Positions 1,565 to 7,241 of a DNA stretch of 23,490 nt are shown here, in pieces. The first letter of the stretch is position 1, and each line of letters starts with the position of its first letter. Below the pieces are notes generated by a model. That model made no database searches. It was not told where the DNA came from and was given only the letters and a program-made list of their open reading frames with translations. This stretch comes from a virus (lineage: Duplodnaviria > Heunggongvirae > Uroviricota > Caudoviricetes). The stretch lies in the IMG/VR virus record IMGVR_UViG_2563366807_000007, positions 1 through 23,490 of that record; one strand, given 5' to 3'. The translations under genes and the position numbers were made by a program.

Positions 1565-3106
1565 TCAGTGGTAATACTCACTGCCGCGTACGTTTTCGTG
1601 TTCCATCGTGGATAACAGATCTGGTTTTGGATCCTGAACAGGTTGTTTATCCAGACCTTTTTCCAGGATCGATTTAATACCTGACAGACGCCATACCTTT
1701 GTTTTCAGAGCTCTTGCACATGCTGCATTAAGTCTGGCTTTACTGTATTTTTTATGAAGGTTCAGGAGTCCAAGGCAGAAGCGATAGCTTTGTTCCGGAT
1801 GTGGACGAGAGTTCAGTATATGAAGCACATAACTATGAGTTTCACTGCCTATGTGCCCCGCCCATTCCAGAAGACGCTCTGGCGTCCAGGTGGCATGCTG
1901 TCGATGAGCTTCAGGCATGTGCTCGTTGCGGGTACTGTAGCCATAAGTACGCTTGCGCGGGTGCACAGCAACCTCCTGCCCCTGATTGAAGAGTCTTACC
2001 AGTTCTCCGGAGATCCATGCTTCCAGTTGCTGGCCTAACAGCGAACATGGAACCGAGTAGTAATGTTTGTCGATTTCCACGTGGTAATCGGCATGAACTC
2101 TGACTTTCTTCACCAGGGTGTAACTGTAACTGGCTTCAGGAAGAGGCTTCAGTGCGGGTTTATCAAGCTGGATGAAGAGTTCTGCACGTGAATAACCCAA
2201 CTTCTGCATTATTTTGTTATTCAGTCTTTCCAGCAACTCCCGAATGCGCTGATTAAGCGATGCAAGGCTGTAGAAGATCTCATGCCTGATTCGGGCCATG
2301 ATCCAGCGTTCAACAACCTGAACGCCAACTTCAGCTTTGGCTTTATCTTTCGGTTTACGTGGCCGCGCAGGCAAAACTGCGACATTATAATGCTCAAGCA
2401 TCTGCTGGTAGGTAGGGTTAACGTCAGGATCATACTTACATGCCCTGGATGTGGCGCTTTTCAGATTGTCCGGAACAACAAGTTCAGGAACGCCACCCAA
2501 CCACTGGAAGCAGCGAACATGACTCATCACCCAGTCTTCAAGCTGCTGAGACCAGGTGGCCTCTGCCCATGTGTAACTTGATGCCCCGAGAACAGCTACG
2601 ATGACCTGAGCAGTTCTTATTTCTCCGGTCTCAGGGTCGGTAACGCCAACGGTAGGTCCACAGTAATCAACGAAAAGTTTTTCGCCAGCTTTATGTACCT
2701 GACGCATTGATGGTGAAGTGGTTTTGAGCCATTCACGGTACATCCGGCAGTAATGGTTATAGCTGTAAAAACCGCCTGGATTACGCTCACAGTATTCTTC
2801 CCAGAGTAGCTGCAGCGTCACGCATTTATTACGCAGTTCCCGGTGTACTGTAGCCCAGTCAGGCAGAGAGTGCTTCTTCATCTTAACCTGGGTCTGAAGG
2901 AACGCATGTTTTAGTTTTGTATCATCCCATCCTGTAGGTAAGGGCCACTGCTTTATGCCAAGTTGAGCCGCCCGATTAGCATATCTGGATACAACGGAAG
3001 GGGAGATTGCAAGACTACGACCAATTTGTCGATGGCTGAGTCCAACACCGTATTTAAGCCTAAGAATTTCTTTAAGTTTTCTCATAGAAATTGGAACTGT
3101 TGGCAT
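1565..3106 (-). CDS. istA: IS21-family transposase IstA
   Basis: 513 aa. N-terminal helix-turn-helix (LSHRQIGRSLAISPSVVSRYANRA) followed by a large integrase/DDE-type catalytic region. Gene order istA then istB is typical of the IS21 family. Confidence 0.9.
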   Translation of the reverse strand: MPTVPISMRKLKEILRLKYGVGLSHRQIGRSLAISPSVVSRYANRAAQLGIKQWPLPTGWDDTKLKHAFLQTQVKMKKHSLPDWATVHRELRNKCVTLQLLWEEYCERNPGGFYSYNHYCRMYREWLKTTSPSMRQVHKAGEKLFVDYCGPTVGVTDPETGEIRTAQVIVAVLGASSYTWAEATWSQQLEDWVMSHVRCFQWLGGVPELVVPDNLKSATSRACKYDPDVNPTYQQMLEHYNVAVLPARPRKPKDKAKAEVGVQVVERWIMARIRHEIFYSLASLNQRIRELLERLNNKIMQKLGYSRAELFIQLDKPALKPLPEASYSYTLVKKVRVHADYHVEIDKHYYSVPCSLLGQQLEAWISGELVRLFNQGQEVAVHPRKRTYGYSTRNEHMPEAHRQHATWTPERLLEWAGHIGSETHSYVLHILNSRPHPEQSYRFCLGLLNLHKKYSKARLNAACARALKTKVWRLSGIKSILEKGLDKQPVQDPKPDLLSTMEHENVRGSEYYH

Positions 3107-4534: not shown

Positions 4535-4666
4535 ATGTCAGACAAACTCATAACGCTGGCGAAGATCCTCTGTGTAATTGTCGGCATTTCATTTTCACTA
4601 ATGCTGGTTGCTCTTTTTCTTTCCATGGCCTGGATGATGTTGTCTTCGTCGGGGTTGCTGGGGTGA
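4535..4666 (+). CDS. Small hydrophobic protein (43 aa), unknown function
   Basis: Strong RBS AAGGGAGGA 7 nt upstream of ATG 4535. Sequence [43 protein letters not shown] is almost entirely transmembrane. Its stop TGA (4664-4666) overlaps the possible GTG start of Rz. Confidence 0.4.
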
Positions 4667-5136
4667 ACATAAACCGAATGCTTTCCGCGTTTATCGTTAT
4701 TCTGCTGGTGGCCTGTGGTGCGCTGTGGATGGCAACAGACCATTACCGTGATAACGCGATTACCTACAAAGCGCAGCGCGATAACAAAGCCAGTGAACTG
4801 AAGCTGGCGAACGCAACCATTACTGATATGCAGGTGCGCCAGCGCGATGTTGCTGCGCTCGATGCAAAATACTCGAGGGAATTAGCCGATGCGAGAGCTG
4901 AAAATGAAACTCTTCGCGCTGACGTTGCCGCTGGTCGTAAGCGCCTGCGGATCAACGCCACCTGTCCAGGCTCCGTGCGTGAAGCCCCCACCACCTCCGG
5001 CGTGGATAATGCAACCGGCCCCCAACTGGCAGACACCGTTACACGGGATTATTTCACCCTCAGAGAGCGGCTGATGACGATGCACAAGCAACTGGAAGGG
5101 GCACAGGACTATATCCGCACTCAGTGCCTGAAATAA
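4663..5136 (+). CDS. Rz: Rz i-spanin (inner-membrane spanin subunit)
   Basis: N-terminal TM segment then [44 protein letters not shown] and a C-terminal [18 protein letters not shown] region, matching lambda Rz as I recall it. Start is either GTG 4663 or ATG 4678. Confidence 0.9.
4889..5074 (+). CDS. Rz1: Rz1 o-spanin (outer-membrane lipoprotein), embedded in the +1 frame of Rz
   Basis: Lipoprotein signal with lipobox LVVSAC, followed by the proline-rich stretch [22 protein letters not shown], nearly identical to lambda Rz1. Lies wholly within Rz in a different frame; an alternative start is ATG 4904. Confidence 0.8.
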
Positions 5137-5446
5137 GTTTTGTTGATGCGCCGTATCGTCGCTATATTCCCTCATTAACAGAGACCGCAGCCCGACAGGG
5201 AGACTCCTCTGCGCGAGTGTGCGGGGATAATTAAAAACGATGCACACCGGGTTTTTACCGCGTTAATGATTCGCGGGTTTATCCCGGTGCGATGGTGGAA
5301 GAAACAGGAAGCTGTATTACAGAAAGTGCTACTACTGTATCCCGATGCGATGTATGTAATGTGAGTCAGATAATGGCACAGGATGTGGTGATGTGGCAGT
5401 CTGGAACACAGGATATATTGTCAGAATAAGACCCGTAGGAATAAAA

Positions 5447-5773
5447 ATGAAAAGACGCCTTTTACTACTTTTTCTGTTATCTGTCCTGGCAGTGGGATGC
5501 TCGCAGCAAAAAGCTGATGAGCCCCGGCAATTAGTGACGGTGTATCCACGATATCCGGAATATGCTGCAGCAAATTATATCAAGGGGCTGGTTGAGGTTA
5601 AGTTCGATATTGGTGCTGATGGGACTGTGACACGGATCGTTTTTCTCCGCTCAGAGCCTCATAATTTGTTTCGTGATGAAGTGGTGAAGGCCATGGCGAA
5701 ATGGCGATTTGAAAAGAATCGCCCCTGTCAGGGAGTGAAGAGACAATTTATCTTTACGCCGTCACGTCCTTGA
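5447..5773 (+). CDS. Lipoprotein with a TonB C-terminal-like domain (moron)
   Basis: 108 aa. Signal peptide MKRRLLLLFLLSVLAVGC with lipobox AVGC and Ser at +2. The remainder (YPEYAAANYIKGLVEVKFDIGADGTVTRIVFLRSEPHNLFRDEVVKAMAKWRFEKNRP) aligns motif by motif with the E. coli TonB C-terminal domain ([11 protein letters not shown]..DGRV....[24 protein letters not shown]). Confidence 0.7.
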   Translation: MKRRLLLLFLLSVLAVGCSQQKADEPRQLVTVYPRYPEYAAANYIKGLVEVKFDIGADGTVTRIVFLRSEPHNLFRDEVVKAMAKWRFEKNRPCQGVKRQFIFTPSRP

Positions 5774-5865
5774 TGCTTCCAGGTAGAGAGGGGCTGGACG
5801 CAGGAGAAAAATGAAAGAGCCAGCGGTTATATTTTTGTCATGGCTGACGAGGAATGATGGAAGAA

Positions 5866-5888
5866 GGCGTTGTATGCCACACAACGCC
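5866..5888. terminator. Hairpin (8-bp stem GGCGTTGT/ACAACGCC, 7-nt loop) between convergent genes; possible bidirectional terminator
   Basis: Perfect inverted repeat about 90 nt downstream of the lipoprotein gene and 8 nt downstream of the minus-strand gene stop. A T-rich tract follows on the plus strand (TCACTGTTCATTTCTTCTTTTTCTC). Confidence 0.3.
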
Positions 5889-5895
5889 TCACTGT

Positions 5896-6075
5896 TCATT
5901 TCTTCTTTTTCTCTGGTGGAACCCGATGAATAAGAGTTGCACTGGTTTCCGATGAGATGGCGATATACTCGGGCAAAGTATGCTGGCAGTTTTCCAACTG
6001 GTCAAAAATACCTGCTCTCGTCTGTTGCAATGCCTGCAGCATGCGGCGGCAATGCGCCTTGCTTTTACTAACCAT
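5896..6075 (-). CDS. Small hypothetical protein (59 aa) with a C-terminal lysine tail
   Basis: ATG at 6075-6073 (minus strand) preceded by a strong RBS GAGGAAGG. Sequence MVSKSKAHCRRMLQALQQTRAGIFDQLENCQHTLPEYIAISSETSATLIHRVPPEKKKK. The longer track ORF (to 6249) probably over-extends the 5' end. Confidence 0.45.
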   Translation of the reverse strand: MVSKSKAHCRRMLQALQQTRAGIFDQLENCQHTLPEYIAISSETSATLIHRVPPEKKKK

Positions 6076-6136
6076 CTTTCCTTCCTCTATCAGTCGCTGC
6101 GTGAACTCATCATGTAATACCAGGTAAATGCGGATG

Positions 6137-6388
6137 TTATCGGTTTTGGCTACGCAGCATAGTACAAAACGGACAGGTGCATCCCGGGACGGGGGAGGCG
6201 TCACATGTCCCTGTGATGGTTGTTCCGGGTAATGCACTGTGTGGGGCATAAAAATGTCCGATAATTTTACTTTCTACCGCAGTTAGTTGATTCGTTGGTC
6301 CTGGTAGCACATTGGGCGAGGATTTAAATGCCAGGCAACTGAAGGATGATGTTGCAAGGGAGATAGCGAGAATATTTCTGATTTTCAT
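6137..6388 (-). CDS. Small predicted secreted cysteine-rich protein (83 aa)
   Basis: ATG at 6388-6386 (minus strand) with AGAGG about 9 nt upstream. N-terminal signal-peptide-like segment MKIRNILAISLATSSFSCLA. The mature part carries a Cys cluster (TGTCDASPVPGCTCPFC). Lies in an AT-rich moron region. Confidence 0.45.
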   Translation of the reverse strand: MKIRNILAISLATSSFSCLAFKSSPNVLPGPTNQLTAVESKIIGHFYAPHSALPGTTITGTCDASPVPGCTCPFCTMLRSQNR

Positions 6389-6536
6389 TTGATGATGCCT
6401 CTGTGTGAAATGACGGTAAACGACGCACTTGTGCCGGCACATAATAGCAAGCACCATAATAGATCAGATTCGATTCTTGCTGTAAGTGATAATTATTCTC
6501 GTTTTCGGGTCCTTTCCGTCGATCCAACAGGTTACG

Positions 6537-6548
6537 GGGCGGCGACCT
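6537..6548. other. cosN: cosN: 12-nt cohesive-end sequence GGGCGGCGACCT, matching the lambda cos sequence as recalled
   Basis: Sequence GTTACGGGGCGGCGACCTCGCGGGTTTTCGCTATTTATGAAAATTTTCCGG matches, from memory, the junction of the lambda right and left genome ends. It sits about 185 bp upstream of the terminase small-subunit gene. Confidence 0.8.
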
Positions 6549-6700
6549 CGCGGGTTTTCGCTATTTATGAAAATTTTCCGGGAACCATGTCCGGTTTCTC
6601 TTCAAGTTAACTATATGAAAAATAAAAAAAGAGGTCTTCTGTGAACCGGACATGCACAAAAAATAGACATGTAAGCCGGACATGACCGGTTTTGTTGTGA
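6549..6700 (+). promoter_or_regulatory. cosB: cosB-like terminase binding region: three copies of CCGGACATG (one inverted) flanking an AT-rich putative IHF site
   Basis: CATGTCCGG at 6586-6594 (inverted), CCGGACATG at 6646-6654 and 6676-6684, with an AT-rich segment (TTAACTATATGAAAAATAAAAAAAG) between the first and second. This mirrors the lambda R3-I1-R2-R1 arrangement. Confidence 0.6.
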
Positions 6701-6731
6701 TTGTGAAGTGAGAGTTTTTGCGAGGTGAGGA

Positions 6732-7241
6732 GTGGCTACGCAGACTGAAGTTGCCAGGCATTTAAGTCTGACCGATCGCCAGCTTCGCAGATTGCAGAAA
6801 TTGCCGGGTGCCCCGATATCGAATAAGCGAGGGCAACTGGATCTGGATGCCTGGCGCGATTTTTACATATCGTATCTGAGAAGAAGTAAAAACGATGTGC
6901 CTGATGGCGATAGCGAAGACGACTATGAGGAGAAATTGCTTATTGCCAGATGGGAACTGACAGCAGAACAGGCTGTTACACAGCAGTTAAAAAATGAGGT
7001 GTCAAAAGGAAAACTTATTGATACCGGGTTCTGTATTTTTGCCCTCAGCAAGCTGGCAATGGCGTTATCCAGTACGCTTGATTCCATCCCTTTATCCATG
7101 CAGCGACAGTTTCCTGATTTAACACCGCGCCATCTTGACCATCTGAAAACCCTTATTGCGAAGGGGGCAAATCAGTGTGCGCGGGCGGGGGATAAATTAC
7201 CGGATTTACTCGATGAATATATCAGAGCAACAACTGAATAA
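6732..7241 (+). CDS. nu1: Terminase small subunit (lambda Nu1-like)
   Basis: GTG start with RBS GAGGTGAGGAG. The segment TGFCIFALSKLAMALSSTLDSIPLSMQRQFPDLTPRHLDHLK aligns with lambda Nu1 (TAFCTFVLSRIAGEIASILDGLPLSVQRRFPELENRHVDFLK). It lies downstream of cos and its 3' end overlaps the start of A. Confidence 0.9.
   Translation: MATQTEVARHLSLTDRQLRRLQKLPGAPISNKRGQLDLDAWRDFYISYLRRSKNDVPDGDSEDDYEEKLLIARWELTAEQAVTQQLKNEVSKGKLIDTGFCIFALSKLAMALSSTLDSIPLSMQRQFPDLTPRHLDHLKTLIAKGANQCARAGDKLPDLLDEYIRATTE

Follow-up and report, generated by a model that had tools for sequence, protein, structure and literature searches.

The window analyzed in this study, the whole 23,490-nucleotide stretch of the viral record IMGVR_UViG_2563366807_000007, is a phage-21-type lambdoid prophage. 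Between its lysis genes and cos lie two small open reading frames (ORFs), ORF-A and ORF-B, which run antisense to the lysis and terminase genes (Table 1). On balance, we favor the reading that they form a Fur-controlled two-gene cassette for lysogenic conversion, whose first gene would encode an exported four-cysteine (Cys4) protein tied to the handling of a metal, probably zinc. A first-pass annotation, made from the DNA letters alone, had described the pair as moron cargo encoding a secreted Cys-rich mini-protein and a second small protein. The coordinates and lengths that it gave (83 and 59 amino acids, aa), the cysteine cluster CDASPVPGCTCPFC, the KKKK end of the second product, and the GAGGAAGG before the second ATG are all present in the sequence. 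It was silent on a TonB_C lipoprotein gene nearby, on the putative Fur operator beside cosQ, and on the Zur/zinc context of the ORF-A family.

Evidence that ORF-A and ORF-B are genes

Because 42 ORFs of at least 30 aa occur within 3.5 kb, ORFs of such size are frequent by chance and the existence of ORF-A and ORF-B alone proves nothing. What raises both above chance is frame-specific purifying selection together with conserved length in diverged relatives. When 5.8 billion proteins were searched, E. coli, Citrobacter, Klebsiella, and Salmonella yielded full-length ORF-A homologues of approximately 83 aa with 54-77% identity. Profile searching against 1.84 billion representatives gave 31 clusters, reaching Enterobacter, Serratia, Pantoea, and Buttiauxella with identity down to 25%, and all 31 carry the name "hypothetical protein"; overall, relatives thus span 25-77% identity across Enterobacterales. 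When the locus was compared with diverged loci by blastn, homology was limited to 6135-6396, that is, to the ORF-A coding sequence and its ribosome-binding site. Between lineages, synonymous sites were saturated (synonymous divergence, pS, 0.47-0.86; nonsynonymous divergence, pN, 0.11-0.22), dN/dS was approximately 0.06-0.2 where computable, and the ORF-A frame was the sole stop-free frame. In about 76 near-identical E. coli and viral loci, ORF-A carried five nonsynonymous and four synonymous single-nucleotide polymorphisms (SNPs) and zero indels.

The start codon of ORF-A is the ATG at 6388, since every homologue opens with MKI or MKV, and a purine-rich Shine-Dalgarno (SD) sequence followed by ATCATCA(A/G)ATG is kept in diverged homologues. 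A longer 106-aa ORF (6457..6137) was ruled out because of these MKI/MKV openings and because variants destroy the ATG at 6457, while "165-aa" database proteins proved to be frameshift fusions in which ORF-A is joined to a 117-aa frame. ORF-A was annotated in none of the five records inspected (RefSeq/PGAP E. coli, curated phage 21, and other phage records). Annotators are in full disagreement over the ORF-A/ORF-B stretch, with other phage records calling other frames. A scan of genome contigs gave three loci only, a scan of viral contigs gave near-identical copies only, and a search of the literature on the protein accessions returned nothing relevant. These comparisons indicate that ORF-A is a genuine gene under purifying selection.

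ORF-B was initially viewed as an artefact, because only near-identical copies or frameshift fusions had been seen, because of its SNP pattern, and because nucleotide homology ended at ORF-A. This view was reversed by intact Salmonella homologues in the same slot. By tblastn, an intact 57-aa Salmonella ORF was 41% identical to ORF-B (E = 0.04 against 7.3 Gb), and a profile search retrieved this Salmonella branch, one allele of which lies on 904 contigs. Homologues of 57 aa with 41-45% identity occur in a Gifsy-like element (L097; L numbers denote the loci compared) and in a Nu1-type lambdoid element (L099) of Salmonella, in both cases closing a leftward cassette that lies between the genes for the small terminase and Rz. 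The two share 73% nucleotide identity with pS of 0.58 and pN of 0.19 (pN/pS 0.32), and the ORF-B frame alone is open in this comparison, whereas the antisense frames hold stops. An equivalent SD, AGGAGG or AAGAGG, precedes the Salmonella-type homologues. A 117-aa ORF (6249..5896) was rejected because the homologues open at MVSKSK. Both frames are kept in diverged relatives, and the claim of two genuine genes antisense to the late operon is borne out by selection and homologues alike, although for ORF-B less securely than for ORF-A.

The predicted ORF-B product is basic (pI 9.7), without a signal peptide or membrane segment, and was modeled by AlphaFold2 (AF2) as a long helix (residues 3-36) followed by a short hairpin, with a predicted local distance difference test score (pLDDT) of 64. 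It matches phrog_4843 (function unknown), bears the PGAP name WP_000253883.1 in some strains, and gave zero matches in Pfam, NCBIfam, PADLOC, and PDB. The idea that ORF-B is a diverged DUF3950/YlcI protein (PF13132) was rejected, as there was no Pfam match at E ≤ 1 and BLASTP against the DUF3950 protein of L012, another E. coli prophage type, gave no alignment at E ≤ 100. As a separate observation, RefSeq switches between ORF-B and an antisense 60-aa ORF (WP_000881607.1, phrog_3744), placing the gene at 5896-6075 (-) or at 5980-6117 (+). The choice follows a T/G SNP at 6115 that makes or removes a plus-strand stop, an annotation artefact in hundreds of genomes.

A Fur-box-like element between cosQ and ORF-A

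The top match to the Fur 19-mer GATAATGATAATCATTATC on both strands of the window lies between cosQ and ORF-A, approximately 100-118 nucleotides (nt) before the ATG. At this site, GAAAACGAGAATAATTATC agrees with the 19-mer at 15 of 19 positions and overlapping registers agree at 14 of 19; 0.04 matches of at least 15/19 are expected by chance per Markov-simulated window. Perfect 7-1-7 homologues stand 5-6 bp from GGGTCCT in L012 (TGATAATAATTATCA), lambda (TGATAATCATTATCA), and DLP12 (TGATAATTATTATCA). L097, which has another terminase type (DUF1441) and no cosQ nearby, carries a 17/19 Fur box 43 nt before its first cassette gene, and L099 carries a 15/19 box at -43. In each prophage locus, the top Fur site is the one upstream of the first cassette gene, and a Fur-like element also precedes bor in Salmonella remnants.

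Sites of this kind have a history in the literature. The nohB site (DLP12, 25.3 bits) and the nohA site (Qin, 22.3 bits) are among the strongest predicted Fur clusters of K-12, and a Fur gel shift was shown for the nohA oligonucleotide, the nohB site being predicted (Chen et al., 2007, PMC2189734). According to the same authors, the nohA site had been selected for Fur binding in vivo by Vassinova & Kozyrev (2000). In a comparison with noh-type prophage genes, as suggested in the first-pass annotation, the DLP12 slot holds ylcI, with a Fur box at the same place as in the window. Like the window, both K-12 sites, nohA and nohB-nohD, have a 7-1-7 Fur box at 5-6 bp from cosQ, on the flank that faces away from the Nu1 homologue, and a small gene on the minus strand comes next. 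They differ in that K-12, like lambda, carries a DUF3950 gene behind the box, to which ORF-A and ORF-B have no similarity, and in that the window box is slightly degenerate (15/19). The literature assigns the K-12 sites to the Nu1 homologue and not to the divergent moron, and a literature search on ylcI found nothing relevant. Because the DLP12 site (3090-3114 of L112) lies on the ylcI side of cos, approximately 150 nt from the ylcI start, the element would appear to control the leftward slot, instead of or besides the Nu1 homologue. It may therefore be the divergent cargo gene that the published nohB/nohA Fur sites regulate, and homology together with the consensus match suggests Fur control of the window cassette as well. 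In lambda (L111, NC_001416), where the box occupies 2148-2167 at 6 bp from cosQ, an unannotated 64-aa DUF3950/YlcI-like ORF stands behind it at 1810-2004 (-).

A candidate promoter region was read from the sequence between the Fur box and ORF-A and aligned with L012 and L005. It includes a candidate extended -10-like element, TGCTATTAT, at 6449..6441 and a second -10-like TATTAT (6461..6456) with a -35-like CTTACA (6486..6481), the latter overlapped by the Fur box. A perfect 12-bp palindrome, TGTGCCGGCACA (6430-6441), comes shortly after the -10-like element and could be an operator or a stem in the 5' untranslated region (UTR); L012 and L005 have other palindromes at the aligned position, with centers TTAA and CTAG. 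The gap of 61 nt between ORF-A and ORF-B is hairpin-free. A hairpin between ORF-B and the convergent TonB_C gene folds as RNA at -19 kcal/mol (z = -3.5 against shuffles) and may act as a terminator for the cassette, perhaps in both directions; it was not listed by the terminator scan because its U-tract is imperfect. In L099, ORF-B is followed by a more distinct stem-loop that has a T-run.

The predicted ORF-A product and the zinc context of its relatives

ORF-A is predicted to encode an exported Cys4 mini-protein with a Sec/signal peptidase I (SPase I) signal, judged by inspection (positive n-region, hydrophobic h-region, small residues at -3/-1). The signal peptide comprises residues 1-20 (6388..6329), with the n-region MKIRN, a 12-residue hydrophobic core, ILAISLATSSFS, and predicted cleavage between CLA and FK. 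Because most relatives read ALA followed by FQ at this site, the Cys of the signal peptide is not conserved. The mature protein would have approximately 63 aa and a pI of 8.5. The N-terminal half of this mature form varies except for an ExxI...FYxxH segment, and the C-terminal GTCxAxPVxGCxCxFCTMLR forms the invariant core of the family, in which C62, G69, C70, and C72 never vary and C75 occurs in more than 90% of sequences. The signal-peptide-like N-terminus noticed in the first-pass annotation thus has canonical Sec features that are kept in relatives, and the cysteine cluster turned out to be the most conserved part of an Enterobacterales-wide family. ORF-A had zero matches in Pfam, NCBIfam, PHROG, PADLOC, and PDB, and hence none to toxin, defense, or structural families. 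Apart from the family, two long low-complexity proteins, P0063 (627 aa) and P0070 (398 aa), contain 4-5 tandem PIPGCNCPKCTNLRN-like motifs resembling the C-terminal core of ORF-A, which may reflect convergence or a common mini-module.

A link to zinc emerged from the surroundings of the relatives. The published Zur consensus is GAAATGTTATA-N-TATAACATTTC (PMC4219657), and the box was tested as GAAATGTTATANTATAACATTTC with the core TGTTATnnnATAACA. In 893 kb of analyzed DNA, the perfect Zur core TGTTATNNNATAACA occurred at only three distinct places, all of them outside phages and upstream of ORF-A-family genes or operons. This core lies 36 nt before the Buttiauxella relative and 107 nt before the K. 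pneumoniae relative; in Salmonella salamae, diarizonae, and arizonae it lies approximately 50 nt ahead of a PPC-domain gene located upstream of ORF-A. The Serratia relative has a two-mismatch core at -39. The neighboring genes of the Buttiauxella relative had no Pfam match. The K. pneumoniae relative, of 84 aa, is convergent with aztD, encoding a zinc metallochaperone (459 bits, cutoff 400), and aztC, encoding a zinc-binding protein (381 bits, cutoff 350). This aztABCD-like operon has its own one-mismatch Zur core and, from its Pfam/NCBIfam content, could be the Zur-repressed second zinc importer zniCBA of a recent preprint. The small gene beside it is probably an unrecognized member of the Zur regulon. 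In Enterobacter, a heavy-metal P1B-type ATPase gene precedes the relative by 62 nt on the same strand, and on Klebsiella plasmids the relative lies approximately 700 nt from genes for a Fur/Zur-family repressor and a ZigA-like COG0523 GTPase. Because chromosomal relatives thus stand behind Zur boxes and beside zinc-acquisition or heavy-metal genes, we consider a periplasmic metal-handling role the most likely one for ORF-A.

Proposed mechanism and rival explanations

We infer the promoter, co-transcription, Fur control of the window copy, export, the cleavage site, metal or disulfide chemistry, and the benefit to the host from sequence, and propose the following mechanism. The cassette would be transcribed leftward, opposite to the late operon, from the approximately 120 bp between cosQ and ORF-A. 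Through its Fur operator it would be silent in iron-replete cells and derepressed in an iron-starved lysogen, independently of the phage repressor. A single transcript would span ORF-A and ORF-B and end at the hairpin at 5865-5889. The 83-aa ORF-A precursor would be exported by Sec and cut after Ala20 to yield a periplasmic or secreted protein of 63 aa, whose C-terminal knot, C-x7-C-x-C-P-x-C, would hold two disulfides or a metal ion. This protein would take part in the handling of periplasmic metal, probably zinc, with a gain for the host under metal limitation. ORF-B would be a small, basic, helical cytoplasmic protein that travels as the last gene of the cassette.

Several observations weigh against this proposal, and we consider them together with the rival explanations on which they bear. 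The first rival holds that only ORF-A is functional and that ORF-B is a decaying remnant in E. coli, which would leave a one-gene moron with a long 3' UTR. In the near-identical loci, ORF-B carries seven nonsynonymous and two synonymous SNPs, a less favorable pattern than that of ORF-A, and it is frameshifted in three of the about 76 through two independent events, namely 5910delT, seen in L083, and a +T at 6060/6061, shared by L087 and L088. An ORF-B allele without the first start codon, P0147 (48 aa), is widespread in E. coli, occurring on 486 contigs, and constraint on ORF-B in this species may therefore be relaxed. In addition, the Klebsiella plasmid copy is interrupted by an insertion sequence (IS) after approximately 30 codons, and gene callers disagree over the stretch. 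We nevertheless regard decay of ORF-B as fairly unlikely: intact versions of 57-59 aa exist in three lineages, their constraint falls in the sole open frame, each lineage has a strong SD at the right distance, and with so few SNPs, neutrality and weak constraint cannot be told apart.

The second rival concerns the Fur-like palindrome, which would be an accessory site of packaging at cos, the cassette being constitutive or otherwise controlled. The window box has two mismatches in its 7-1-7 core relative to TGATAATnATTATCA, and its center is approximately 110 nt from the ORF-A start codon. Since a consensus scan upstream of ORF-A found no strong or canonical sigma-70 site, the promoter also counts as putative. 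The spacing between palindrome and cosQ is constant (5-6 bp) in lambda, DLP12, phage 21 and the window, L012, and L099, whichever gene follows, and therefore the palindrome could serve packaging rather than transcription. However, the 17/19 box of L097 stands before a cassette with no GGGTCCT nearby, the Salmonella salamae remnant retains the box before bor, and the nohA site is bound by Fur in vitro and was selected in vivo. Packaging and operator roles are not mutually exclusive, and a role in packaging without control of the cassette seems to us unlikely.

The remaining points against the proposal concern the metal. AF2 gave no confident fold for ORF-A (pLDDT 47), and Cys4 metal sites are uncommon in the oxidizing periplasm. 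Zur control of the window copy was rejected, as no Zur core with up to two mismatches was present within 2.5 kb of the window ORF-A. No Zur or Fur box is close by in L105 (a Salmonella diarizonae integrative element), L107 (phage-like, K. variicola), or L109 (Enterobacter, immediate upstream region), so the zinc link is frequent yet not universal. A third rival would make ORF-A a secreted disulfide-rich effector (a toxin, a bacteriocin-like peptide, or a signaling peptide) and ORF-B its cytoplasmic partner (an immunity protein or regulator), with the metal neighborhoods being coincidental. Heat-stable enterotoxins are small, Sec-exported, and contain four Cys, and in STb and EAST1 a Sec-signal precursor with a short four-Cys mature peptide is carried on an E. 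coli mobile element. ORF-A is alike in that its product is small, predicted to be Sec-exported, and has four Cys. In prophage cassettes, ORF-B always follows small exported or membrane proteins that contain Cys, and the Salmonella copies of ORF-A lie amid virulence genes (bor, omptin, NEL effector, SPATE autotransporter). Still, we judge this rival quite unlikely. ORF-A had no homology to STb or EAST1 in any library searched and differs from them in Cys spacing, and no similarity to toxin, bacteriocin, or defense families was found in Pfam, NCBIfam, PHROGs, PADLOC, or PDB. Unlike these toxins, it has chromosomal relatives in the non-pathogens Serratia plymuthica, Pantoea, and Buttiauxella, and most relatives, including chromosomal ones, are without ORF-B. 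Chance is hard to invoke when three independent loci have perfect Zur cores and AztD/AztC, P1B-ATPase, and ZigA-like neighbors occur as well.

It is scarcely credible that the real genes are the plus-strand ORFs 5811..5933 (40 aa) and 5980..6162 (60 aa; 45 aa in the window) and the minus-strand ORFs artefacts, even though the CPT annotation of phage 21 calls two such ORFs, PGAP calls WP_000881607.1 in strain 536, and phrog_3744 matches the 60-aa ORF, because the common SNP at 6115 makes or removes the stop within the 60-aa ORF, the 40-aa ORF is cut short by 5919 G>T, no antisense frame is open opposite the ORF-B homologues in L097 and L099, and constraint is seen in the ORF-A and ORF-B frames only.

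Returning to the Fur-controlled cassette as the preferred reading, we also entertain a wider and more tentative idea, which we hold to be possible rather than probable. The ORF-A family may be an undescribed Enterobacterales family of exported Cys4 proteins of approximately 60 aa in the Zur response, which would bind or transfer zinc or another metal in the periplasm beside AztD/AztC-type importers; lambdoid phages would have captured a member and, by way of the conserved operator next to cos, rewired it to Fur. If so, about one-fifth of sequenced E. coli strains would hold an unannotated, phage-borne, iron-controlled metal-handling gene, and the Cys4 family would be a new component of the response to zinc starvation, with a bearing on survival under host nutritional immunity. 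If the nohA/nohB Fur sites control the slot, the slot would be an iron-gated expression site for lysogenic-conversion genes. If neither the Fur-slot nor the zinc idea is true, ORF-A and ORF-B would be an ordinary pair of small moron genes.

Variable cargo in the slot beside cos

We define the slot as the interval between cos/Nu1 and the lysis genes (Rz), read leftward. In the window and phage 21 it holds ORF-A and ORF-B; in L012, ORF-A, a gene for a 44-aa lipoprotein, and a DUF3950 gene; in L099, genes for two small membrane proteins with two Cys each, and ORF-B; in L097, a 61-aa ORF, a gene for one small two-Cys membrane protein, and ORF-B; in DLP12, ylcI (DUF3950); and in lambda, a DUF3950 ORF that is unannotated in NC_001416. 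ORF-A also occurs as a single gene on chromosomes, and in 66 records of IncF Klebsiella plasmids it lies beside a degenerate cos remnant. In Salmonella salamae, diarizonae, and arizonae it lies downstream of the PPC-domain gene with a gap of 96 nt, and in salamae and diarizonae (L009 and L015) bor follows directly.

From this variation among syntenic relatives, the cassette is mobile moron cargo between conserved phage modules. The first-pass annotation had suggested that it was horizontally acquired, and the different slot contents of lambda, DLP12, and other E. coli and Salmonella prophages, together with the solitary ORF-A copies on chromosomes and plasmids, agree with this. Its argument from base composition is weaker: the segment said to be AT-rich has a G + C content of 0.43-0.49 across 5900-6650, compared with 0.53-0.57 in the flanking lysis, terminase/portal, and structural genes, a modest gap that makes the description only mildly true. 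A moron in a cos-proximal slot is of an already known kind; the two proteins are uncharacterized, and ORF-A is systematically unannotated.

Some of the alternative cargo deserves mention. The 44-aa lipoprotein of L012 (5345-5479 (+); VKYFALISALLLSAC...) has two further Cys and only faint PHROG matches in the signal-peptide region. The single-pass membrane proteins, with two conserved Cys, that replace ORF-A upstream of ORF-B in L097 (3784-3951 (+)) and L099 (3395-3550 and 3773-~3960 (+)) read MKNIITIIVAIIIVFYAGMWSQKFLMEDECLDSGGSYNENGIC..., and one protein of the MKNIITIIVAIIIVFYAGMWSQKFLMEDECLDSGGSYNENGIC type bears the RefSeq label "lytic enzyme" without evident basis.

Comparison with known systems

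The classical moron bor (iss) of lambda and phage 21 is small, benefits the host, and has an exported product, as proposed for ORF-A; both genes run against the late operon in the Rz-cos interval, and in L009 and L015 it directly follows ORF-A behind the same Fur-like element. The two have no sequence similarity, however, and Bor is a lipoprotein cut by signal peptidase II, whereas ORF-A has a predicted SPase I site. The bor gene of phage 21 is without a Fur box, and the window is without bor. The sitABCD genes on lambda-like coliphages are moron cargo with a Fur box (PMC6969025). As proposed here for the cassette, they are metal-starvation cargo placed on lambdoid prophages in the host Fur regulon, but they encode a characterized four-gene Fe/Mn ATP-binding cassette importer at another genome position, whereas the cassette encodes two tiny proteins. 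With AztD and ZinT, periplasmic zinc proteins of the Zur regulon, the ORF-A relatives have the Zur box in common, and the K. pneumoniae relative shares the aztD-aztC locus. ORF-A would also share their compartment if it is exported as predicted. It has no sequence or predicted fold similarity to them, its mature form is approximately 60 aa and cysteine-based, and the phage copy has a Fur box and not a Zur box.

Locus, distribution, and neighboring genes

The 1.5 kb around the cassette is 100% identical to many E. coli chromosomes, and carriers of the region include ST131 and strain 536. Of 5426 complete E. coli genomes, 1224 contained a 701-bp core (5780-6480), 1201 of them with at least 99% identity; this core was also 99.4% identical in phage 21, ev017, Perceval, and three PhiR phages. 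An Rfam scan of 5000-7000 found no RNA family.

Table 1. Features of the cassette and its surroundings. Positions refer to the window unless another locus is named.
Feature	Position	Strand	Remarks
Rz/Rz1	4663-5136	+	Local gene order
45-aa ORF	Between Rz/Rz1 and TonB_C lipoprotein gene	+	
TonB_C-domain lipoprotein gene	5447-5773	+	Pfam TonB_C 7e-13; NCBIfam TonB models; lipobox LAVGC
Hairpin	5865..5889	.	9-bp G+C-rich core stem AGGCGTTGT/ACAACGCCT, 12 pairs in folded model; 7 nt past ORF-B stop
ORF-B	5896..6075	-	ATG, 59 codons + stop; product ends KKKK; promoter-distal gene of cassette
SD of ORF-B, GAGGAAGG	6080..6087	-	4 nt before ATG
ORF-A	6137..6388	-	ATG, 83 codons + stop; encodes MKIRNILAISLATSSFSCLAFK..., includes CDASPVPGCTCPFC
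ORF-A Cys motif, C62..C75	6205..6164	-	
SD of ORF-A, AGAGG	6398..6402	-	9 nt before ATG
Candidate promoter region	6436..6487	-	Read from sequence, aligned with L012 and L005
Fur-box-like operator	6482..6506	-	Overlapping registers GAAAACGAGAATAATTATC (6506..6488) and GAGAATAATTATCACTTAC (6500..6482); 7-1-7 core CGAGAAT-A-ATTATCA; adjoins cosQ
cosQ, GGGTCCT	6507-6513		
12-nt cohesive end, GGGCGGCGACCT	6537-6548		
Nu1-type small terminase gene	6732-7241	+	
Zur cores, perfect or near-perfect, ahead of ORF-A-family genes and of the aztABCD-like operon of K. pneumoniae	L090 4894-4908 and 9376-9390; L017 1336-1350; L009 4454-4468		

The TonB_C lipoprotein gene is placed after the lysis genes and convergent with the cassette. 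Its product, which is little beyond a TonB C-terminal domain and is kept in both phage 21 and E. coli 536, could interfere with TonB-dependent uptake or with the entry of phages or colicins. In phage 21 (L002, 1894-2187) and strain 536 (L104, 1394-1687), bor/iss follows Rz; it is absent from the corresponding part of the window (~5137-5290), where Rz and the 45-aa ORF lie approximately 500 bp closer together than in those two genomes. On the side corresponding to the region upstream of the window's lysis genes, L001 carries iraM, an anti-adapter gene, and several pseudogene fragments between Q and holin (2110-2445), which makes iraM a further antisense cargo gene of the late region in such prophages.

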